From NCBI GenBank assembly GCA_964400545.1, contig CAYNUG010000001.1:2394-66393 (forward strand): a DNA stretch of 64,000 nt, given 5' to 3'. A program made the position numbers and the translations under genes. The stretch comes from an uncultured Clostridia bacterium. Lineage in GTDB: Bacteria > Acidobacteriota > Aminicenantia > UBA2199. Positions 53,990 to 64,000 of the stretch are shown piece by piece; position 1 is the stretch's first letter; every line of letters starts with the position of its first letter. Below the pieces are notes generated by a model. It was not told where the DNA came from. It did no database searches and saw only the letters and a program-made list of their open reading frames with translations.

Positions 53990-56284
53990 ATGGCAATAAA
54001 TCTGATAATAAACGGTTGCCCTCTCGAGATATTCGATGGGGCAACCATAGGAGACGCCATAAGGAAATTCTCTCCTGATACACTTTCTGATGTTGAGCAG
54101 GGAAGATCCGAAGTCAGGGATTTGGACGGCAACTTGTACTACCTTAGCGGAGAACTGACCGGAGGAGAAGTATTTGGAATTGAAAAAAAATCACAATCGG
54201 AGAAAAATATGGATCAATCAAAACACTCACTGATTACTATAGTTTTAATAGCATTATCTCTCATACTTCTTGGAACATTCCTGATCAGGGCAGATAGTGA
54301 AGAAACAACAATCACCATATTTCATCTTAATGATATACACGGAACTATCAAAAATATGGGGAAAATCACTTCAATTGTTGAAACAGAAAAAGCAAATAAT
54401 CCGAATGTATTCCTTATGGAGGCAGGAGATAATTTCAGTGGAAATCCGGTTGTCGATCAGTATGATCCTAAGGGCGAGCCCATATTGGTATTGATGAATA
54501 AAATGAAGTTTGATGTGGGAGTATTAGGTAATCACGATTTTGATTTCGGGAAAAAGATATTAAAAAGATTTATGAAGAAAGCAAATTTTCCGATCTTATG
54601 CTGTAATGTAAAAAGCAATGATCCCGACTTCCCTCAGCCTGAACCTTATACAGTATTAAAAACCGAGAACGGAATTGATCTGGTTATTCTCGGATTGATC
54701 CAAACAGAAGCACATTCGGGAATTCCCAGCACGCTTCCTGCTAACGTTAAAGATCTTAGATTTTTTAAAGGAACTGAATTTGCTTTAAAATACAAATATT
54801 TGAAAAAAGATAACAATATCTTCATTGCCCTCAGCCATCTCGGATTTGGAAAAGACAAGGAACTTGCTGCCAACATGAAGGAACTTGACTTGATAATTGG
54901 TGGTCACTCTCACACACTGATTGAGAACCCCGCGTTTGAGAACGGAGTACTAATTGCACAGGCCGGGGCACATGCAGACTACCTTGGCAGAATCGATATT
55001 GTGGTCAAAAATGGTAAAATAATAAGCAGGAAGGGCTCTGTTATTGATCTTCATAAAGTAAAAACAAGTAACAAAGAAATTGATAAACTTGTTACAGATT
55101 TCAACAGCGAAAGTTCTCTGAACAATGTCCTTACCGTGATCGACACCACTATCACCGGAAGAAACGACCTGGGTCTAATGGTCACTGATGCTGTTCGTGA
55201 GGACCTTGGCCTCGACATGATCTTCTACAATAAAGGAGGGATCAGGATAAACAGATTATCCGGTAAGGTCAGGGCCAAAGATATTTACTCTATGCATCCT
55301 TTCGGGAACTATATCGTTGAGATATTGATGGATACTTCGGAAATAAAAAACCTTATCAAAAATGATTATGAAAGTCACAGGGGACTCGATATAATCCCTT
55401 CGGGACTAACCTACAGAGTAACCAGAGATCTGAACAAAAAAGTTATTAAAGTTGAATTATTCGATCTTAACGGATACAGGTTGCCGGACAACAGAAAATT
55501 CAGGGTCGGACTCAACAACTATATCGTAAGTTCTTATAATTTCACACATAAAGATCCGGGGAAATCTACAAATGCGAAAACAGTGGATATTATGCTCAGA
55601 TTCTTTTCTAACCTGAAAAAGAAATTGAATTACTCTGATGTAGTAAGAGCCGAAGAAAAAATCGTCTATTCAGGGAATGTTAAAACTTTGGGTGTAACGG
55701 AAACGGATATTTTTGCAGCAAAGAAAACATTCTATAAAAACTCCCCATCCGGAAATCTTATAACAGATGCGATGAGGGTTCAAACAAGTTCTGATCTGGC
55801 GTTATTCCCGACCAGGCTTTTAAGAGAAGGATTGATCATACAAAAAGGAAAAAAGATATACAAAGAGGTACTTCCCGATCTTTACAGTTTCATAAAACAA
55901 AGCAAAGTTATAAAGATCACACTTACCGGGAAGCAATTAAAAGATTTCATATTTAAAAGGACCGGACAGAAGAACAATATAGACCTTCAGATATCGGGAG
56001 CATCATACTCCGTCCTTTATGATAAGGAAAATAAGGTTTGTAATGTAGAATTTAGTTTATCCACAGATCCGATCTTCAGTGAAGCAAAATCCTACAGCAT
56101 TGCCATGATCGAATATGAATTCAGGAATTTCTATAAATTGAAAAAATTAACCGCCAAACCTGAAAGGGTAAAGAAAGGACTTGAGGATATTTTGTCAGAA
56201 TATATCATGGCTAAAAAGATCATCACAGAACAAATAGCAATACCAAGGATCCTATTAAAAAAACAAGTGAAAGCGAGGAGGTAA
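53990..56284 (+). CDS. membrane-anchored 5'-nucleotidase / metallophosphoesterase (UshA-like)
   Basis: Motifs LNDIHG, GDNFSGN, GNHDFDFG and GGHSH, plus a C-terminal 5'-nucleotidase domain and TM LITIVLIALSLILLGTFLI. The alternative start ATG 54209 has GGAG 6 nt upstream. Confidence 0.8.
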   Translation: MAINLIINGCPLEIFDGATIGDAIRKFSPDTLSDVEQGRSEVRDLDGNLYYLSGELTGGEVFGIEKKSQSEKNMDQSKHSLITIVLIALSLILLGTFLIRADSEETTITIFHLNDIHGTIKNMGKITSIVETEKANNPNVFLMEAGDNFSGNPVVDQYDPKGEPILVLMNKMKFDVGVLGNHDFDFGKKILKRFMKKANFPILCCNVKSNDPDFPQPEPYTVLKTENGIDLVILGLIQTEAHSGIPSTLPANVKDLRFFKGTEFALKYKYLKKDNNIFIALSHLGFGKDKELAANMKELDLIIGGHSHTLIENPAFENGVLIAQAGAHADYLGRIDIVVKNGKIISRKGSVIDLHKVKTSNKEIDKLVTDFNSESSLNNVLTVIDTTITGRNDLGLMVTDAVREDLGLDMIFYNKGGIRINRLSGKVRAKDIYSMHPFGNYIVEILMDTSEIKNLIKNDYESHRGLDIIPSGLTYRVTRDLNKKVIKVELFDLNGYRLPDNRKFRVGLNNYIVSSYNFTHKDPGKSTNAKTVDIMLRFFSNLKKKLNYSDVVRAEEKIVYSGNVKTLGVTETDIFAAKKTFYKNSPSGNLITDAMRVQTSSDLALFPTRLLREGLIIQKGKKIYKEVLPDLYSFIKQSKVIKITLTGKQLKDFIFKRTGQKNNIDLQISGASYSVLYDKENKVCNVEFSLSTDPIFSEAKSYSIAMIEYEFRNFYKLKKLTAKPERVKKGLEDILSEYIMAKKIITEQIAIPRILLKKQVKARR

Positions 56285-56286
56285 AA

Positions 56287-56856
56287 TTGGCTCAACTATA
56301 CTACAGACACTCAACAATGAACGCCGGGAAATCAACAGAAGTATTGAAAATAGCACACAATTATGAAGAACAGAATAAAAAAGTTCTCCTCTTTACACCT
56401 TCAATTGACGACAGGTACGGAGAGGGAAAGATCACATCAAGAATGGGTTTCCAGCGTGAAGCAATAATGATCAAATCGGATACAGATATTTATGCAATCG
56501 CCGAGAAAGAGAGTCCTTTTTGTATTCTCATTGATGAAGGACAATTCCTTAACCGCCAGCAGGTGATCACGCTGACAAAAATAGTTGATGAACTTAATAT
56601 ACCCGTAATTGTTTACGGGCTTAAGAACGATTACAGGAACCAATTATTTCCGGGAAGCGAAGCACTTCTCCTCCTTGCAGATAAGATAGAGGAAGTGAAA
56701 ACAGTATGCTGGTATTGTACAAGAAAGGCAACCATGCTTATAAAATTCAAGGATGGAAAGCCTGTCAACAAAGGTGAGCAGATAGAGATCGGTGGAAACG
56801 ATAAGTACACTTCTGTATGTAGAAAATGCTATTCTGCCAGATTACCGATCATTTAA
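56287..56856 (+). CDS. tdk: thymidine kinase
   Basis: 189 aa from a TTG start, with P-loop MNAGKSTE, ILIDEGQF, and the zinc ribbon CWYC...CRKCY. Confidence 0.9.
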   Translation: MAQLYYRHSTMNAGKSTEVLKIAHNYEEQNKKVLLFTPSIDDRYGEGKITSRMGFQREAIMIKSDTDIYAIAEKESPFCILIDEGQFLNRQQVITLTKIVDELNIPVIVYGLKNDYRNQLFPGSEALLLLADKIEEVKTVCWYCTRKATMLIKFKDGKPVNKGEQIEIGGNDKYTSVCRKCYSARLPII

Positions 56857-56921
56857 ACAGTTAATAACCCTTATCGAACTTGAAAATAGTATAATAAAGT
56901 TGTAAAGTCATATAATAAAAA

Positions 56922-57560
56922 ATGGAAAACAATAAGCCGCTGGTAATTGGTGTAGCCGGAGGGAGTGGATCCGGGAAGACCACGATCATTAATTCGATAA
57001 TAGAAAAGATCAATCCTTTTGATGTGGTAACACTTCAGCATGATTCCTACTATAAGAACAACAATCATCTTCCTCTACTCGAAAGAGAGAATATTAATTA
57101 CGACCATCCTGATTCGCTAGAAACAGATCTTTTAGTTTCAAATCTGGAAGGTCTATTGGAATGGAAAGAAATCGAAACACCGATCTATGATTTCAAAACC
57201 CATTCAAGAAAAAAAAAGGGACTGATAAAGAAACCAGCCGAAGTAGTGATAGTTGACGGTATCCTGATATTTGTTGAGGAAAGATTAAGAGAACTTATGG
57301 ATGTAAAGATATTCGTGAACACCGATAGCGATATAAGGTTCATAAGAAGATTGAAAAGGGATATGATCGAAAGGAACAGAAGTCTTGACTCTGTAATAAA
57401 TCAATATCTGGCAACAGTAAAACCTATGCATCTCGCTTTTGTTCAACCCAGCCGTAGATTTGCAGATATCATTATTCCAGAGGGAAAAAGTCCTATCTCA
57501 ACAGCAATGGTTGTAAATCTTATAGAAAGCCATTTAAAAAAAGGTCAGAAAAAGAACTGA
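56922..57560 (+). CDS. udk: uridine kinase
   Basis: 212 aa with P-loop VIGVAGGSGSGKTT, HDSYY and VIVDGILIF. Confidence 0.9.
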   Translation: MENNKPLVIGVAGGSGSGKTTIINSIIEKINPFDVVTLQHDSYYKNNNHLPLLERENINYDHPDSLETDLLVSNLEGLLEWKEIETPIYDFKTHSRKKKGLIKKPAEVVIVDGILIFVEERLRELMDVKIFVNTDSDIRFIRRLKRDMIERNRSLDSVINQYLATVKPMHLAFVQPSRRFADIIIPEGKSPISTAMVVNLIESHLKKGQKKN

Positions 57561-57566
57561 AGGCTT

Positions 57567-58163
57567 ATGTCTGGAGAATTTGTTATGGTAGAAAAAGAAT
57601 TTATAAGTGCACAGCAGTTGTTGGAAGATTCTTTCCGGCTTGGCATTAAGATCCTCGAGAGTGGTTTTAGACCAAACTACATTGTCGGGATCTGGAGAGG
57701 CGGCACTCCCGTAGGAATAGCCGTTCAGGAATTGTTGGATTATTTTGGAATAAAAACAGACCATATCGCAATAAGAACATCATCCTATGAAGGGATCGGC
57801 AAAAGAAAAAAAGAGATCAGGGTTCACGGTCTGGATTATATCTCAAACAGTATCAATTACGATGATAATCTGCTGATCGTTGATGATGTATTCGATACAG
57901 GGTTAAGCATTGAAGGAGTTTTAAATTCTCTCAAAGCGAAAGCCAGAAGGAACACTCCCAAAGATATAAGGATCGCAACATCCTATTACAAACCGGACAA
58001 CAAAAAAACTGACTTCAAACCAGATTATTATATTCATGAAACATCCAACTGGCTTATTTTTCCGCATGAACTTGATGGATTATCAAAAGATGAGATCGAA
58101 AAATATAAACCAAATGTTTCAAAACTAATTAAGGCGGTAAACAAAAATGGAAATAACACGTAA
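57567..58163 (+). CDS. purine phosphoribosyltransferase-family protein
   Basis: 198 aa with the PRPP-binding loop LLIVDDVFDTGLS. Base specificity cannot be determined from sequence. Confidence 0.6.
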   Translation: MSGEFVMVEKEFISAQQLLEDSFRLGIKILESGFRPNYIVGIWRGGTPVGIAVQELLDYFGIKTDHIAIRTSSYEGIGKRKKEIRVHGLDYISNSINYDDNLLIVDDVFDTGLSIEGVLNSLKAKARRNTPKDIRIATSYYKPDNKKTDFKPDYYIHETSNWLIFPHELDGLSKDEIEKYKPNVSKLIKAVNKNGNNT

Positions 58164-59361
58164 ATTTATAGAAAAGATACCAAAAACTGATTTGCATCTT
58201 CATTTAGACGGTTCTTTGAGATTGGAAACACTTATTGAACTTGCCGATGATGCAGGTATAGAACTTCCGGCCAAGACTGTCGAAGGTCTGAAAAAAACTG
58301 TTTTTAAAGATAAGTACAATAACCTTGGAGAATATCTGAAGGGGTTTTTCTATACTGGCTCAGTAATGCAGACAGCAGATTCTCTTGAACGAATATCTTA
58401 CGAACTCGCTCTGGATAACATCAACGAAGGAGTTAAATATATAGAGGTCAGGTTTGCACCGCAATTACATCAGAATGATGATCTCGGTATAATCGATGTC
58501 CTAAAAGCAGTTAACAAAGGGTTGAAAAAAGCTCAGACAGAATTCAATGATCGCAAAGAGATAGGTTCCGGTACAGAACCGCCTTTCGAATACGGAATAA
58601 TCTCCTGTGCAATGAGAATGTTTGATTACGGATTTTCCAAATATTTCGATGATCTGCTGAACGTTCACAAATATTCTGACAGAAAATGGATATTCTCATT
58701 AGCTTCACAGGAACTCGTAAGAGCTTCAGTAGATGCCAGGGATAATCATGACATTCCGGTTGTCGGATTTGATCTGGCTGGAATGGAAAAGGGATATCCT
58801 GCTGTTGATCATAAATATGCATACAACCTCGCACACAAAAGTTTTCTGAAAAAAACTGTCCATGCCGGGGAAGCTTACGGGCCTGAAAGTATTTTTCAAG
58901 CAATAACCGAACTACATGCTGACAGGATCGGACATGGGCTTCATCTGTTTGATGCGAACATTATCAAGAATGATGACATAATTGATAAAGAGGATTATGT
59001 AAACGATCTTGCCCAGTACATTGCTGACAGGAGAATCACAATCGAAGTTTGTCTTACTTCAAATATGCAGACGAATCCTAAATACAAAACTCTCGAAGAC
59101 CATCCTTTCAGAAAAATGAAAGATGCACGATTATCTCTGACCTTTTGCACGGACAACAGAACCGTATCATCAACAACGGTAACTGATGAGATATTTAAAG
59201 CTGTCAACACATTCGATATTTCTCATAAGGATCTCAGAGACATAGTCGTATACGGCTTTAAAAGGAGCTTCTTTCCGGGATCATACCTGAAGAAAAGACG
59301 ATATGTAAGAAGGATCCTCAATTATTATGATGAAATTGAAAAAGAATTCGGACTAAAATAA
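58147..59361 (+). CDS. add: adenosine deaminase
   Basis: 404 aa with PKTDLHLHLDGS, VHAGEAYG, and FCTDNRTVS. Overlaps the upstream gene by 17 nt. Confidence 0.85.
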   Translation: MEITRKFIEKIPKTDLHLHLDGSLRLETLIELADDAGIELPAKTVEGLKKTVFKDKYNNLGEYLKGFFYTGSVMQTADSLERISYELALDNINEGVKYIEVRFAPQLHQNDDLGIIDVLKAVNKGLKKAQTEFNDRKEIGSGTEPPFEYGIISCAMRMFDYGFSKYFDDLLNVHKYSDRKWIFSLASQELVRASVDARDNHDIPVVGFDLAGMEKGYPAVDHKYAYNLAHKSFLKKTVHAGEAYGPESIFQAITELHADRIGHGLHLFDANIIKNDDIIDKEDYVNDLAQYIADRRITIEVCLTSNMQTNPKYKTLEDHPFRKMKDARLSLTFCTDNRTVSSTTVTDEIFKAVNTFDISHKDLRDIVVYGFKRSFFPGSYLKKRRYVRRILNYYDEIEKEFGLK

Positions 59362-59383
59362 CACTACTTACAAAAGGAGTATT

Positions 59384-60736
59384 ATGGAATTGATAACCAT
59401 ACTGAGAGGATTGGCAGGAGTCATTTTTATTCTGGGAATTACATTTTTATTTTCGAACAATAAAAAAAAGATCAATTGGAGACTCGTGGGAACAGGACTT
59501 TCCATACAGTTGATATTTGCTGTTTTTATCATTCACGGTGAAACATTCAGATCCTGGTTCTTTATCCTGGGGTGGCCAAAAGATATGCTCAACTGGTTCG
59601 GGGGAGTAGTGGTTAAGATCCTCAGTTTTATTGCCGAAGGGTCTCAGTTCGTATTCGGATCTCTTGCAGTAAGTCCGGGAAGTAATGGCAGTTTGGGATT
59701 CTTTTTTGCATTTCAGGTTCTACCGACAATAATATTTTTTGCTTCTTTAACAGCTGTATTGTATTACACGGGTGTGCTTCAGATGATCGTAAAATGGATG
59801 GCATTTATTATGGCAAAACTACTCGGCACAAGTGGAGCAGAATCATTATCCAATACAGCAAATATTTTTATAGGGCAAACGGAAGCTCCGATCCTCATAA
59901 GACCTTATATTAATTCAATGACAAATTCAGAACTCCTTACAATAATGATAGGCGGGATGGCGACAGTAGCGGGGGGTGTTATGGCCAGCTACATTCAAAT
60001 GTTGGGTCATGCAATGTCAGTGGCAAAAGGTATCCCTTTAAATGAGGCACAATTGGGATTTGCCATCCATCTTATTACAGCCAGCGTAATGGCTGCACCG
60101 GCTTCGATCGTTATAGCAAAAATGCTTCACCCCGAAACAAAAGTTCCTGTAACACTCGGAAAAGTTACAATGGAAGTTGAGAAAAATGGTTCCAATGTTA
60201 TCGAAGCTGCGGCAAACGGTGCATCTGACGGACTTAAACTGGCACTGAATGTCGGGGGAATGCTGATTGTTTTTATAGCTTTCATCTATTTGTTCAATTA
60301 TCTGTTCCATAGTTTCGGTGACATCATCGGGATCAATGCATGGCTTACTGCAAAATTCGGACAACCATTATCTATGCAACTTATTATGGGACTTCCATTA
60401 AAATATCTGGCAATAGGTATCGGTGTTCCTACCCAGGATGCATTCGACTTCGGGAGACTATTCGGAACGAAGATCGTTCTTAATGAATTTGTTGCTTATC
60501 TGGATCTTGTAAAAATAATAAAAGCTAATGCAATGAGCGCAAAGGGTATAACAATGGCCACTTTCGCACTTTGTGGTTTTGCAAACTTTTCATCAATTGC
60601 TATCCAGCTTGGAGGTATTGCACCCCTTGCTCCTGGCAGAAAAAAGGACATAGCCGCTCTCGGTCTGAAATCTGTTCTCGGGGGAGGATTGGTAACACTC
60701 CTCACTGCTACACTTGCCGGTGTTCTTATCTGGTAG
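59384..60736 (+). CDS. nupC: NupC-family concentrative nucleoside transporter
   Basis: 450 aa, polytopic, with IFIGQTEAP, MATVAGGVMASY, and CGFANFSSIAIQLGGI. Confidence 0.85.
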   Translation: MELITILRGLAGVIFILGITFLFSNNKKKINWRLVGTGLSIQLIFAVFIIHGETFRSWFFILGWPKDMLNWFGGVVVKILSFIAEGSQFVFGSLAVSPGSNGSLGFFFAFQVLPTIIFFASLTAVLYYTGVLQMIVKWMAFIMAKLLGTSGAESLSNTANIFIGQTEAPILIRPYINSMTNSELLTIMIGGMATVAGGVMASYIQMLGHAMSVAKGIPLNEAQLGFAIHLITASVMAAPASIVIAKMLHPETKVPVTLGKVTMEVEKNGSNVIEAAANGASDGLKLALNVGGMLIVFIAFIYLFNYLFHSFGDIIGINAWLTAKFGQPLSMQLIMGLPLKYLAIGIGVPTQDAFDFGRLFGTKIVLNEFVAYLDLVKIIKANAMSAKGITMATFALCGFANFSSIAIQLGGIAPLAPGRKKDIAALGLKSVLGGGLVTLLTATLAGVLIW

Positions 60737-60865: not shown

Positions 60866-62272
60866 ATGGAGACAAAAATAAACAGCAAGATCGCGATCGG
60901 AGCCGATCATGGAGGATTCCCTCTTAAAGAGGTCCTTAAAAGTTTCCTTGAAGAAAAAGGATATCAGATCATTGACTGCGGGACAAACAGTACTGATCCG
61001 GTAGATTATCCGGTATACGCAACCAAAGTGGCAACACTTTTATCCAATTCCGAAGTTGATATCGGTATCATGATTGATGGTGCCGGGATCGGATCGTCCA
61101 TGGTTGCCAATAAGATAAACGGAGTCAGAGCAGCTCAATGTTATGATGTAACAACGGCAGTGAATGCAAGGGAACACAATAATGCAAACCTTCTTACCCT
61201 TGGAGCGGGACTAACCGGAACTGAACTAGCAAAAAAAATTGCAGAGGCTTTCCTGACCCACGAATGCACAATAGACCGCCATATAAATAGGGTGGCAATG
61301 ATTGATGCCCTTGACAATGACAAGACATCCATGGGAGGTCCAGGAGATCCTGTCGGGGAGGATAATTTGGAAGCTATTACAGAAAAAGATATCGATCAGA
61401 TCGCAGAAAAAGTAAGATCAATAATCTCTTCAGAAAATAATATTTCTGAGACTAAAGTAAATGAGGACCCGGAAAGAGAAATGATATGCCAATGCGGAGT
61501 TCATGTAGAGAGGAAACCGGAAACATTGAGAAAATTCATAGAATTTGGTGTTGCCAGGCTCGGTTATAACGATGCCATCGGAGTGGAGTGCGTCCCGGAA
61601 GACATTGCAGCTTGTATCGACCATACGCTGCTTAAACCTGAGGCTACAGTTGATGATATTAAAAAATTATGCGCAGAAGCCAAGGAATACAAATTTGCCG
61701 CCGTCTGTATAAGCCCTAGTTATGTGGCTCTCGCTTCACGTGAACTTACAGGAAGCAATGTTATAGTATGTACTGTGGTCGGATTTCCATCTGGAGCACA
61801 CGTTTCAGATATCAAGGGAATGGAAACAAGAAGAGCAATAAGAGATGGAGCTAAAGAAATTGATATGGTTATCAATATAGGTGCCCTGAAGAGTAATAAT
61901 GACGATCTGGTATACAAAGATATAAGGACAGTATGTGAAGCTTGCGAGGATGGAGGAGCACACAGTAAAGTGATAATCGAAGCCGCACTTCTTACGGACG
62001 ATGAGAAGGTCAGGGCCTGTCAATTGGCAAAAAAAGCAAGAGCGGACTTTGTAAAAACATCAACCGGATTCGGGCCACACGGGGCAACAGCAGCTGATGT
62101 CGAACTAATGAGCAGTATTGTAAGGGAATCGGGGATTGGTGTTAAAGCTGCGGGTGGGATCAGATCGCTTGAGGACGCTGCAGCGATGATCAATGCAGGT
62201 GCAACCCGAATAGGAGCCAGTGCCGGAATAAAGATTCTAAAAGCCGCAGGTGGAATAACAGTTTCATCCTGA
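60866..62272 (+). CDS. fusion protein: RpiB/LacAB-type sugar-phosphate isomerase + deoxyribose-phosphate aldolase (DeoC)
   Basis: 468 aa. The N-domain has [10 protein letters not shown]...[17 protein letters not shown]...[16 protein letters not shown] linker of about 85 aa follows. The C-domain has [18 protein letters not shown] and [10 protein letters not shown] (Lys codon 62054-62056). Confidence 0.85.
61385..61426 (+). other. candidate internal encapsulation peptide (amphipathic helix) in the RpiB-DeoC linker
   Basis: [14 protein letters not shown]. It matches EEIDRIAERVVSLL of the AldDH N-terminus at 7 of 14 positions, with conservative changes at 5 more. Confidence 0.45.
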
Positions 62273-62285
62273 TAAGGAGGATAAT

Positions 62286-62909
62286 TTGGTCGATCTGAGA
62301 GCATACGTTTTTTTAGATAAGATCCAACCCCAGTATGCAGCATTTCTGGGAACAATTGCACAGGGATTCTTACCTGTTGCAGGAATGTCTTCACTTTATA
62401 TCGAGATCTCACCCGGAATAGAGATCAACAGGGTTACTGATATCGCATTAAAATCTACAAATGTCACACCGGGCATGCAGATCGTTGAAAGGTTGTACGG
62501 AATGCTTGAGATTCACTCTGCATCCCAGGCCGATGTCAGGCAGGCCGGAAGAGCGATCCTTGAAGCTCTGGATATCAAAGAAGAGGAAAGGTGGAAACCC
62601 AAGATCTATTCACAGCAGGTTATCAGAAGAATAGATGATTATCAGACACAATTAATAAATAGAATGAGACACGGCAACATGATTGTCCCCGGAGAGACAA
62701 TGTTCGTTCTGGAAGTCCAACCCGCAGCCTATGCAGCACTTGCTGCAAATGAAGCAGAAAAAGCTGCATCCATTAATATCCTGGAAGTAAGATCCTTCGG
62801 TAGTTTCGGAAGAGTATATCTCGGTGGGGATGAGAGAGATATTGATGTCGGATGGAGAGCGGCTGTAAATGCGATCGAAGATGTGACAGGAAAAACAGAT
62901 CATAAGTGA
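62286..62909 (+). CDS. tandem BMC-domain shell protein (BMC-T-like)
   Basis: 207 aa from a TTG start 4 nt after AGGAGG (62275-62280). Two halves each carry a BMC-like core: [24 protein letters not shown]...[13 protein letters not shown] and [29 protein letters not shown]...[12 protein letters not shown]. Subtype undetermined. Confidence 0.6.
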
Positions 62910-62940
62910 TCAAATATATAATATTAAACAGGAGGAAAAA

Positions 62941-63249
62941 ATGGCAGATGCACTGGGAATGATAGAAACGAGGAATTTTCCCGCAGTAGTAGAAGCAGCG
63001 GATGCGATGGTAAAAGCTGCAAAAGTGGAATTAGTATCATATGAAAAAACTGGCGGCGGATATGTGACAGCAATAATCCGTGGAGATGTGGCAGCGGTAA
63101 AAGCTGCCTGTGACGCAGGGAGAATTGGTGCAGCCAGGGTCGGGGAAGTTGTTGCGATCCATATCATTGCAAGGCCTCATCAAAATGTTGATGCTGTTAT
63201 ACCGCTGGGAAGAACTAAAGAAGGAAAGTCTGAAATGAAGGACAAGTAA
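62941..63249 (+). CDS. BMC-H hexameric shell protein (PduA/EutM/CcmK-like)
   Basis: 102 aa: [56 protein letters not shown]...HIIARPH. AGGAGG RBS. Confidence 0.9.
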
Positions 63250-63264
63250 CCTTTTGGAGAAGAC

Positions 63265-63564
63265 ATGATCCTCGCAAAAGTTATCGGCACTGTAGTATCA
63301 ACCCAAAAAGAGTCCACAATGGATGGGCTTAAACTCCTGCTCCTTCAGCAGATAGATTCAGAAGGAAAGGAAAAAGGGAATACCGTTGTTGCGGCAGATG
63401 CAGTTGATGCCGGTGTAGGTGAGATCGTCCTGTATGCAAGCGGAAGTTCAGCCAGACAGACAAAAAGAACTGATAATCGCCCATGTGATGCAGTAGTTAT
63501 GGCCATTGTAGATAATTGGGAAGTTAATGGAAAGATCGTTTATAAAAAAGGTGCGGACGGCTGA
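63265..63564 (+). CDS. BMC-P pentameric vertex protein (EutN/CcmL/PduN-like)
   Basis: 99 aa: MILAKVIGTVVSTQKESTMDGLKLLLLQ...VAADAVDAGVGEIVLYASGSSAR. Confidence 0.85.
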   Translation: MILAKVIGTVVSTQKESTMDGLKLLLLQQIDSEGKEKGNTVVAADAVDAGVGEIVLYASGSSARQTKRTDNRPCDAVVMAIVDNWEVNGKIVYKKGADG

Positions 63565-63643
63565 AGAAATCCAGGATCAGGGGGAAAAAGATTTACTCCA
63601 TTAAACTCCCTGTTCCCGGGACCACATCTTCCAGGAGATCAGA

Positions 63644-64000
63644 ATGGCACCATTAAAAACAGAAGAGATAGACAGAATAGCAGAGAGAGTAGTCTCACTT
63701 TTAAAGAAGGACACTACTGCCAGCAATACGTTCTCCGGTGGTAATGGCATTTTCTCTTCAGTTGATTCTGCCGTAAACGCAGCTGCAAAAGCTCAGAAAG
63801 AATTTGTGAGACTCCCTCTTGAAGAAAGAAAAAAGATAATTGCGAACATAAGAAAAGAGATGCTCGCTAAAGCAGAAGAACTTGCAAAAATGGCATGGGA
63901 AGAAACAGGCATGGGAAGATGGGAAGACAAGATTGAAAAGAACCGTCTTGTGATCAACAAAACTCCCGGGACAGAGATATTAAAACCGGATGCATATTCA
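63644..64000 (+). CDS. acylating aldehyde dehydrogenase (PduP/EutE-like), 5' fragment running off the right edge
   Basis: Not in the ORF track. ATG 63644 follows AGGAG (63633-63637); 119 codons are open to the window end: MAPLKTEEIDRIAERVVSLLKKD...GIFSSVDSAVNAAAKAQKEFVRLPLEERKKIIANIRKEML...WEETGMGRWEDKIEKN. This is the typical start of BMC-associated AldDH. Confidence 0.75.
   Translation, partial: MAPLKTEEIDRIAERVVSLLKKDTTASNTFSGGNGIFSSVDSAVNAAAKAQKEFVRLPLEERKKIIANIRKEMLAKAEELAKMAWEETGMGRWEDKIEKNRLVINKTPGTEILKPDAYS
63662..63703 (+). other. candidate N-terminal encapsulation peptide of the aldehyde dehydrogenase
   Basis: EEIDRIAERVVSLL, with amphipathic helix periodicity, is followed by a Ser/Thr/Gly-rich linker (TTASNTFSGGNG) before the catalytic domain. 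Confidence 0.5.

Follow-up and report, generated by a model that had tools for sequence, protein, structure and literature searches.

The last genes of a 64-kb stretch of contig CAYNUG010000001.1 (the window, in whose positions all coordinates are given) encode an RpiB-DeoC (RPI-DERA) fusion protein, three shell proteins of a microcompartment and the first part of an acylating aldehyde dehydrogenase (AldDH), and they raise the question of how a protein made of two fused catalytic domains is directed into a shell. Encapsulation peptides (EPs) are amphipathic helices, 15-20 residues long and attached by flexible linkers (PMC4594438), and a helix of this kind stands at the N-terminus of the AldDH. 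A preliminary description of the window had pointed to a similar segment between the RpiB and DeoC domains of the fusion, and had proposed that both enzymes use the same targeting helix, so that in the fusion a single peptide would carry both the isomerase and the aldolase into the shell. Our analysis indicates that, by sequence, the peptides of the two enzymes belong to one motif class, and that both helices probably act as EPs, the one in the fusion from an internal position.

Two matching amphipathic peptides

The internal 14-mer (residues 174-187 of the fusion) and the AldDH 14-mer (residues 7-20, EEIDRIAERVVSLL) are identical at seven of 14 positions (I, D, I, A, E, V and S). Four further pairs are conservative (D/E, K/R, I/L and I/L) and two mildly so (K/E and Q/R), and without gaps the match reaches 17 positions, fusion residues 171-187 against AldDH residues 4-20. 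Low-complexity sequence lies on both sides of the internal helix and follows the AldDH helix as KKDTTASNTFSGGNG. The coordinates of the two segments, their seven identities and these flanks, all given in the preliminary description, were borne out by translation of the window.

When every stop-free 14-mer in the six frames of the window was compared, the two segments proved to be reciprocal best matches, with a BLOSUM62 score of 38 against next best scores of 22 and 27. We also shuffled the interdomain region (residues 147-249) and AldDH residues 1-35 with their compositions preserved; a score of 38 was reached by 0.03% of 20,000 shuffles (p ~3e-4), and a Gumbel fit gave ~1e-3. The 42-nt DNA segments that encode the peptides are ~60% identical and use the same codon at only three of the seven identical residues, which points to selection on the protein. 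Recent duplication or gene conversion was considered as the source of the likeness and was ruled out by the codon usage of both segments.

Both segments had been called amphipathic, and this description holds. The hydrophobic moment is 0.68 for the internal 14-mer (top 1.5% of its own shuffles) and 0.74 for the AldDH 14-mer (top 0.5%), the hydrophobic residues of each are confined to a single arc from 60 to 180 degrees (about 120 degrees), and AlphaFold2 predicts a helix at residues 173-189 of the fusion.

Conservation and predicted structure of the interdomain region

We aligned 120 orthologous fusions, which are mostly labelled Marinimicrobia and share 61-100% identity, and the conservation statements on the interdomain region below refer to this alignment. 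The region falls into four parts, namely a helix with a variable linker on either side of it, followed by a Cys-rich element. The segments at residues 151-170 and 188-205 are hypervariable and contain insertions and deletions, with a column entropy mostly above 3 bits (for residues 188-199 in the second segment). Between them residues 171-187 form a conserved island that reads [LI]-[ST]-x-x-D-[IL]-x-[RKQ]-I-A-x-[RK]-[VI]-x-x-[LMI]-[VIL], in which D175 is kept in 117, I179 in 118 and A180 in 115 of the 120 sequences, and residue 182 is R or K in 118. Thus, the internal helix is retained across the orthologous fusions while both of its flanks vary. What had been described as a linker between RpiB and DeoC does contain a helix flanked by linkers; it is not one linker, and also includes the Cys-rich element of ~45 residues, which belongs to the N-terminal extension of the aldolase.

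The structure of the fusion was predicted with AlphaFold2 from a 75-sequence alignment and read out as the per-residue confidence score (pLDDT) and secondary structure. Both catalytic domains were modelled confidently. The helix at residues 173-189 has mean pLDDT values of 70 and 58 in the 10-residue blocks 171-180 and 181-190, and the segments on either side of it (residues 155-170 and 189-213) have values below 50. A sequence search found no relative of the interdomain region in the PDB, with nothing below E = 1. The possibility that the helix is structured as part of DeoC is not what the model depicts, in which an isolated helix stands between low-confidence flanks, and a predicted free-standing helix outside the DeoC barrel is supported.

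Eight short-linker fusions (L012, L013, L015, L017, L088, L089, L090 and L100) are without the Cys-rich element and nevertheless keep the helix, between two short linkers. This argues that the helix is an autonomous module and more than a part of a folded N-terminal domain.

Fused and unfused aldolases and isomerases

To place the helix among its relatives we searched residues 160-300 with phmmer against 1.84 billion cluster representatives, and fetched 160 further loci from genomes and metagenomes. The Cys-rich element and the start of DeoC lie at about position 215 in fusions and at about position 30 in unfused aldolases. Several of the phmmer alignments extend from the internal helix into the extreme N-termini of unfused aldolases, for example MSQPDIDQLVQIIADRVKQRL, MTSRDIDNLVNSIAARVRDQL and MNLSDDDLDRIAARIAEMAK, which makes the internal helix a homologue of the helix at the N-terminus of unfused DERAs from microcompartments. 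The fetched loci agree with the phmmer alignments in placing the helix at the N-terminus of unfused aldolases of microcompartment loci.

True fusions number 25 among the 160 further loci, and come from Neomarinimicrobiota, Planctomycetaceae, Krumholzibacteriota, Elusimicrobia, Thermoanaerobaculia, Opitutales, Lentisphaerae and others. Many tblastn matches that span the whole fusion (query residues 9-460) proved to be separate RPI and DERA genes, adjacent or slightly overlapping and in different frames (L014, L016, L018, L019, L021, L027, L034-L039, L051 and others). Given that apparent fusions are often adjacent genes, fusion counts taken from translated searches alone would be inflated.

The fused and unfused isomerases differ upstream of the RpiB domain. 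Of the 24 fusions that no contig end truncates, 19 have a stop in frame at most 25 codons upstream of the domain, which leaves no room for a peptide of the isomerase's own. In the unfused RPIs the distance exceeds 25 codons in 45 of 48 cases, with a median of 68, and the extension usually encodes an EP-like helix (e.g. SDADIQAIIRRVVEQLMG) or a small extra domain. The proposal that a single peptide serves two domains is therefore supported, at the level of sequence, by the missing room for an isomerase peptide in the fusions. On the aldolase side, the DeoC N-terminal extension has a median length of 4 residues in 69 loci without shell, AldDH or RPI neighbours versus 73 residues in 71 unfused loci with them, rough values that are based on the first Met.

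Two other arrangements were seen among these relatives. Four aldolase fusions from the phmmer search (P0126, P0140, P0159 and P0188) begin with an EP-like helix, on which a PF02441 Flavoprotein-like domain, then the Cys-rich element and finally DeoC follow; these Flavoprotein-DERA fusions keep the helix at the extreme N-terminus with the partner domain between helix and aldolase, an arrangement opposite to that of the RpiB fusion. Some RPIs, mostly from Acidobacteria-like loci (L018, L036, L037, L046, L057, L064, L092, L098, L106, L109, L121 and L157, and fused in L025), carry in place of the EP helix a conserved N-terminal domain of ~55 residues with the pattern RRVITxxDhPxxGxhxVPxGxIVTPxARxxAxxRGVxI. 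The sole Pfam signal of this domain is a sub-threshold match to E3_binding (peripheral-subunit-binding), at 16.8 bits versus a cut-off of 23.7.

A motif class shared by the two cargo proteins

The aldolase helices and the AldDH N-terminal helices of 20 fusion loci from many phyla were aligned without gaps on their Ile-Ala pair. A common motif, L-[ST]-x-x-[DEQ]-h-x-x-I-A-x-[RK]-h-x-x-h-h, is present in both proteins (Table 1).

Table 1. Residues at the motif positions of the two helices, numbered from the Ile of the Ile-Ala pair
Position	Aldolase helix	AldDH helix
-8	L/I/F	L/I/F
-7	S/T	S/T
-4	D	Q/E
-3	I/L/V/M	I/L/V/M
0	I	I
+1	A (12/20)	A (20/20)
+3	R/K	R/K
+4	V/I/L	V/I/L
+8	hydrophobic	hydrophobic

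In register, the mean score per residue is +1.14; at shifts of -4 to +4 it is at most 0.18, and at shifts of 3 or 4 in either direction it is about 0. Since the in-register score is far above the shifted ones, the likeness exceeds what helical periodicity would give. Each family also keeps signatures of its own across phyla: in the aldolase helix Asp never varies at -4 and +7 is hydrophobic, and the AldDH helix has an Ala at +5 with a variable +7. Of the proposal that both enzymes have the same targeting helix, then, the shared motif class stands in the 20 fusion loci; sameness in the strict sense does not, given the family-specific signatures and the lack of locus-level co-variation described below.

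Several findings weigh against a common targeting role of the two helices or speak for it with reservations. In the 20 fusion loci the paired helices did not co-vary at the level of the locus (21.7 within versus 21.5 between loci, p = 0.44), and a register-free comparison likewise found no co-variation inside the fused class (p = 0.6); we therefore make no claim that the two peptides co-evolve, touch or use one binding site. Over 46 loci of three architectural classes the register-free comparison did give a within-locus excess (23.8 versus 22.2, p ~0.01), which derives entirely from class-level matching; part of this signal stems from low-complexity linkers that match each other and from a shared, uncontrolled amino-acid composition. 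A profile of the internal helix built with the window's clade left out and run against 7,167 open reading frames (ORFs) ranked the AldDH N-termini of that clade right after the fusions; the same profile matched AldDH peptides weakly (E 0.06-0.6) and outside the window's clade hardly at all (~2-3 bits), and AldDH peptides of other clades were outscored by spurious partial matches to BMC-H helices ('AAKRVGELV'), the profile being too short and too dominated by Marinimicrobia to decide. The AldDH N-termini in these comparisons were those of the fetched loci, a search with the 118-residue AldDH fragment having given 15 proteins, mostly fragments. Finally, the AlphaFold2 confidence for the internal helix is moderate (block means of 70 and 58), and the support for an EP role of this protein and this subtype consists of sequence and predicted structure.

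The class-level matching has a pattern of its own. For aldolase helices of the fused class the best partners are the N-terminal helices of the AldDHs in that class (25.1 versus 21.5 and 22.9), and for the N-terminal aldolase helices of SPU6-like loci they are the C-terminal peptides of the AldDHs in theirs (24.5 versus 20.7 and 19.8), e.g. IETLTEIVTREILS versus IETLVQQVVQEIIN. Such matches, internal with N-terminal in the SPU3 type and N-terminal with C-terminal in SPU6-like loci, suggest that the cargo proteins of a compartment all converge on the same code, one compatible with the shell or with a peptide bundle. It is conceivable, though we hold it tentatively, that EPs form subtype-specific address classes independent of position; the doubly tethered internal peptide would then be a natural design for loading two enzyme domains at a fixed 1:1 stoichiometry. 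Equally tentative is a separate idea, that the Cys-rich C-x6-9-C-x2-C-x2-C element forms a metal or Fe-S module not yet described.

In the SPU6-like loci (L014, L016, L021, L034, L038, L051, L099, L131, L149 and L161) the C-terminal AldDH peptide also resembles the N-terminal helices of both aldolase and isomerase in the same class, e.g. VETIVEVITREVLQ versus IEKVVQAVVSEILN. Peptide class seems to go with the subtype of the compartment and not with the protein family or with the terminus.

The helices as probable encapsulation peptides

We consider it likely that both helices act as EPs. Each is an amphipathic helix of ~15-20 residues next to variable, flexible linkers, the extension is missing from homologues outside microcompartments, and the locus contains shell genes. 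The AldDH helix (residues 4-21) is also terminal, as EPs commonly are, and the helix of the fusion (residues 171-188 of 468) is not; given that interdomain EPs are reported in a 2025 bioRxiv preprint (PMC12747264), a terminal position appears typical rather than defining.

Published work on EPs suggests how such helices could operate. EPs bind a hydrophobic groove between tessellating shell hexamers (PMC11157265), and they self-associate into trimeric bundles that drive cargo condensation (PMC12339742). In the sugar-phosphate-utilising (SPU) microcompartments, EPs have been predicted at the N-terminus of all aldolases and of all AldDHs but that of SPU6; the SPU6 DERA is insoluble at full length and soluble once its N-terminal extension is deleted, and SPU6 DERA and RPI form a 1:1 complex (all PMC11585597).

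On this basis we propose the following mechanism. The internal helix would be the ancestral N-terminal peptide of the aldolase, and would have moved to an internal position through the joining of a peptide-less isomerase domain upstream. It would now lie between two flexible tethers of ~20 residues each, which may keep it accessible; the AldDH peptide is N-terminal and is followed by a linker of ~14 residues. The predicted hydrophobic face of the internal helix (I176, I179, A180, V183, I186 and I187) could dock in the groove of the shell hexamers, could bundle with other EPs including that of the AldDH, or could do both. Aldolase, tightly associated isomerase-like partner and dehydrogenase would then condense together and become enclosed, so that the acetaldehyde released by DERA would be oxidised, and so consumed, inside the shell.

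An unlikely alternative, though the one that fares best, is that the helix is a structural or oligomerisation element of the aldolase N-terminal domain, for example at the RPI-DERA interface or in a higher oligomer, and that its likeness to the AldDH helix reflects generic amphipathic chemistry. The strong conservation of residues 206-249 downstream, and a signature specific to the aldolase helix that holds from phylum to phylum (Asp invariant at -4, +7 hydrophobic), are what would be expected of such an element. It accords poorly with flanks that are hypervariable in sequence and length on both sides and have low AlphaFold2 confidence, with the persistence of the helix where the Cys-rich element has been lost, and with the absence of the extension from DeoC proteins outside microcompartment loci. 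Moreover, RPI and an extension-less DERA still give a soluble complex (PMC11585597), and generic chemistry would hardly account for a motif shared with AldDH in register (+1.14 versus about 0 at shifts of 3 or 4).

Less probable still is that the helix is a vestige of the EP of the pre-fusion aldolase, nonfunctional in its internal position, in which case the fusion would reach the shell interior on the back of AldDH or by means of another surface. Reviews describe EPs as terminal (PMC4594438, PMC8217296), and in the 2025 preprint AK and RPI, for which no EP was predicted, still interacted with shell proteins (PMC12747264). Against a vestige, purifying selection on the helix is strong, and both of its flanks have drifted fully, in the 120 orthologues as well as among fusions that span eight phyla or more. 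The fused isomerase has, moreover, lost its own peptide, so that the internal helix is the only candidate signal of the protein. In addition, the preprint reports EPs predicted as linkers between two domains, and describes archaeal EP enzymes that were recruited to shells when their EP-deletion variants were not (PMC12747264).

That the match is a chance one between two charged, Ile-rich helices of an AT-rich genome is very improbable: the peptides are short, composition-matched shuffles sometimes attain 38 (6 of 20,000, maximum 40) and the window's pair is the second highest of the within-locus pairs examined (38 versus 39 in L022), but the two are reciprocal best matches among all stop-free six-frame 14-mers of the window at p ~3e-4, and 17 non-redundant loci, from GC-rich as well as AT-rich genomes, have the in-register motif in both proteins.

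Relation to known systems

Both the locus and the idea of an internal EP are already known from the literature. Axen et al. (2014, PMC4207490) described SPU loci of Marinimicrobia in which aldolase and isomerase are fused and PTAC is missing. An RPI-DERA chimera was subsequently recorded in 20 SPU3 loci, with the remark that its interdomain region corresponds to the N-terminal extension of DERA and may act as an EP (Commun Biol 2024, PMC11585597). For SPU-like compartments of Hodarchaeales, the 2025 bioRxiv preprint predicts EPs 'as linkers between two domains' and reports shell recruitment of GFP-tagged EP enzymes but not of EP-deletion variants (PMC12747264).

Given that the reading is already published, the value of our analysis lies in confirmation and refinement, not in discovery. 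It adds a dissection of the interdomain extension into an autonomous helix of 18 residues, a variable linker and a Cys-rich element missing from some fusions, an explicit in-register motif shared with AldDH together with its statistics, the loss in fused isomerases of the N-terminal extension that is usual on unfused ones, and the negative result on locus-level co-variation.

The window's locus shows no essential difference from the SPU3 type (PMC4207490; Sutter et al. 2021, PMC8217296; PMC11585597). The two have in common a DeoC-RpiB fusion with Asp for the catalytic Cys, an AldDH with an N-terminal EP, a shell set that in the window's relatives comprises CsoS1D/CcmP-like BMC-T, BMC-H and three BMC-P, and the absence of PTAC, as recorded for Marinimicrobia in 2014. 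With the canonical EPs at the N-termini of PduP, PduD, EutC and EutE (Aussignargues et al. 2015, PMC4594438; Fan et al. cited in PMC11157265) the helices share a length of 15-20 residues, small hydrophobic residues at i, i+3, i+4 and i+7, a poorly conserved linker, absence outside microcompartments and presence on several cargo proteins per compartment. They differ in that one helix is internal and tethered on both sides, in the conserved Ile-Ala pair and L-[ST] N-cap, and in that the targeting role here is predicted from sequence. The Hodarchaeales compartments (PMC12747264) resemble the window's in their SPU-type pathway (DERA and AldDH), cargo fusions and predicted interdomain EPs, and differ in that the loci are archaeal and the fusion partner is a flavoprotein domain, not RpiB. 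The bacterial Flav-DERA fusions P0126, P0140 and P0159 have their helix at the extreme N-terminus.

A conserved natural internal EP suggests that the signal need not be terminal, and one peptide may load two fused enzymes at fixed stoichiometry. The case bears on the question of Aussignargues et al. (2015) whether the position of the peptide matters, and mid-chain-tagged fusion cargo could be of use in the engineering of synthetic microcompartments. With two cargo proteins and a compact set of shell genes, the locus also offers a simple system in which competition of two same-class peptides for one site could be set against their bundling.

The locus and its genes

The window, which comes from a Marinimicrobia-like genome, holds the 5' half of what is, as typed from its gene content, an SPU3-type microcompartment locus, for which a breakdown of deoxyribose-5-phosphate from DNA or nucleosides has been proposed (PMC8217296, PMC11585597). 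A PF01791 aldolase, a PF02502 isomerase and a PF00171 AldDH are encoded together with shell genes, as is characteristic of SPU loci, and by Pfam the genes for BMC-T, BMC-H and BMC-P sit between the two cargo genes (Table 2).

Table 2. Coordinates of the fusion gene, its segments and the genes downstream of it in the window
Feature	Position	Strand	Basis
RpiB-DeoC (RPI-DERA) fusion gene, 468 aa	60866..62272	+	ORF; Pfam PF02502 residues 9-146 (E 6.5e-49), PF01791 residues 250-459 (E 2.6e-22)
RpiB-type isomerase domain, residues 9-146, without N-terminal extension	60890..61303	+	Pfam; in-frame stop two codons before ATG
Variable linker 1, residues 151-170, Gly/Pro/Asp-rich	61316..61375	+	entropy, indels, pLDDT
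Internal amphipathic helix, residues 171-188, candidate EP	61376..61429	+	conservation, AlphaFold2, hydrophobic moment
Internal 14-mer, fusion residues 174-187	61385-61426	+	translation
Variable linker 2, residues 189-205, Ser/Asn/Glu-rich	61430..61480	+	entropy, indels, pLDDT
Cys-rich element of DERA N-terminal extension, residues 206-249 (C208, C210, H213, C242)	61481..61612	+	conservation
DeoC/DERA aldolase barrel, residues 250-459	61613..62242	+	Pfam PF01791; pLDDT mostly >85
Tandem-domain shell protein BMC-T, CsoS1D-like	62286..62909	+	Pfam BMC domain; orthologues in L001, L003, L004 match CsoS1D_N + BMC
Hexameric shell protein BMC-H	62941..63249	+	Pfam PF00936, E 2.8e-28
Pentameric vertex protein BMC-P	63265..63564	+	Pfam PF03319, E 7.7e-31
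Acylating aldehyde dehydrogenase (AldDH), 5' part, ATG 63644	63644..64000	+	Pfam PF00171; ORF cut by window end
AldDH N-terminal amphipathic helix, residues 4-21, LKTEEIDRIAERVVSLLK	63653..63706	+	translation; hydrophobic moment
AldDH 14-mer, residues 7-20, EEIDRIAERVVSLL	63662-63703	+	translation
AldDH variable linker, helix to catalytic core, residues 22-35, KDTTASNTFSGGNG	63707..63748	+	length and sequence differ even among close relatives L001, L003, L005

The AldDH gene runs past the end of the window. Its product starts with MAPLKTEEIDRIAERVVSLLKKDTTASNTFSGGNG and continues into the aldehyde dehydrogenase fold, and full-length orthologues at the same position of the loci L001, L003 and L004 have 471-474 residues. 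An exact-sequence look-up of the window's fusion matched no contig. We completed the locus by reference to these three syntenic relatives, at 80-82% identity, in which the gene order is fusion, BMC-T, BMC-H, BMC-P, AldDH, BMC-T, BMC-P, BMC-P; there are thus two BMC-T and three BMC-P genes in the relatives and one of each in the window, which stops inside AldDH. The relatives' loci continue on the other strand with genes for a pyrimidine-nucleoside phosphorylase and a cytidine deaminase. No PTAC or further cargo enzyme was found in the loci of the three relatives, and the cargo would therefore consist of just the fusion and AldDH.

The genes that immediately precede those of the compartment, at 53990-60736 and also on the plus strand, encode a 5'-nucleotidase with an N-terminal extension, a thymidine kinase, a uridine kinase, a phosphoribosyltransferase, an adenosine deaminase and a NupC-type nucleoside transporter, and their order is kept in L001, L003 and L004. 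A phosphopentomutase gene (deoB) was seen neither in the examined part of the window nor in the flanks of the three relatives, so the step that produces deoxyribose-5-phosphate is not accounted for at the locus.

The Cys-rich element

Eight residues of the element (C208, G211, R222, F224, G228, V229, R231 and P244) are invariant among the 120 orthologues, and the element, which AlphaFold2 modelled with low confidence, leads into the barrel. Among 107 diverse representatives with an extension of at least 45 residues, a Cys cluster is present in 76, as CxxCxxC in 42 and as another three-Cys cluster in 34. Usually a fourth Cys precedes the cluster by 6-9 residues, so that the whole reads C-x6-9-C-x2-C-x2-C-[AV]-x-[KR]-[KR]-P, a pattern seen also in P0122-P0169 and in the DERA extensions of L009, L014, L027, L028 and L036; the copy in the window's fusion is degenerate (C208, C210, H213 and C242). 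The words 'iron' and 'zinc' are absent from the 2024 SPU paper (PMC11585597), in which the mentions of cysteine or metal among the matches listed concern the RPI active site and the title of a reference. In its sequence the element resembles a metal or Fe-S knuckle.

The isomerase active site and the shell hexamer

Asp71 of the RpiB domain (61076-61078) aligns with the catalytic Cys of the structures 3ph3 and 3he8, and the Thr that follows there is replaced by Ala (IDGAG versus ICGTG). This agrees with published work, in which an Asp is reported in place of the catalytic Cys (E. coli Cys66) for all SPU RPIs and activity on ribose-5-phosphate was found to be low or absent (PMC11585597). With Asp71 in place of the catalytic Cys, the RpiB domain of the fusion is probably not a conventional ribose-5-phosphate isomerase.

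Compared with the PduA residues reported in PMC11157265, the BMC-H of the window retains the AMVKAA and AAxDAG (helix 2) groove motifs. At the position equivalent to PduA Ala63, where the mutation A63R blocked peptide binding (PMC11157265), the window's BMC-H has an Ile.

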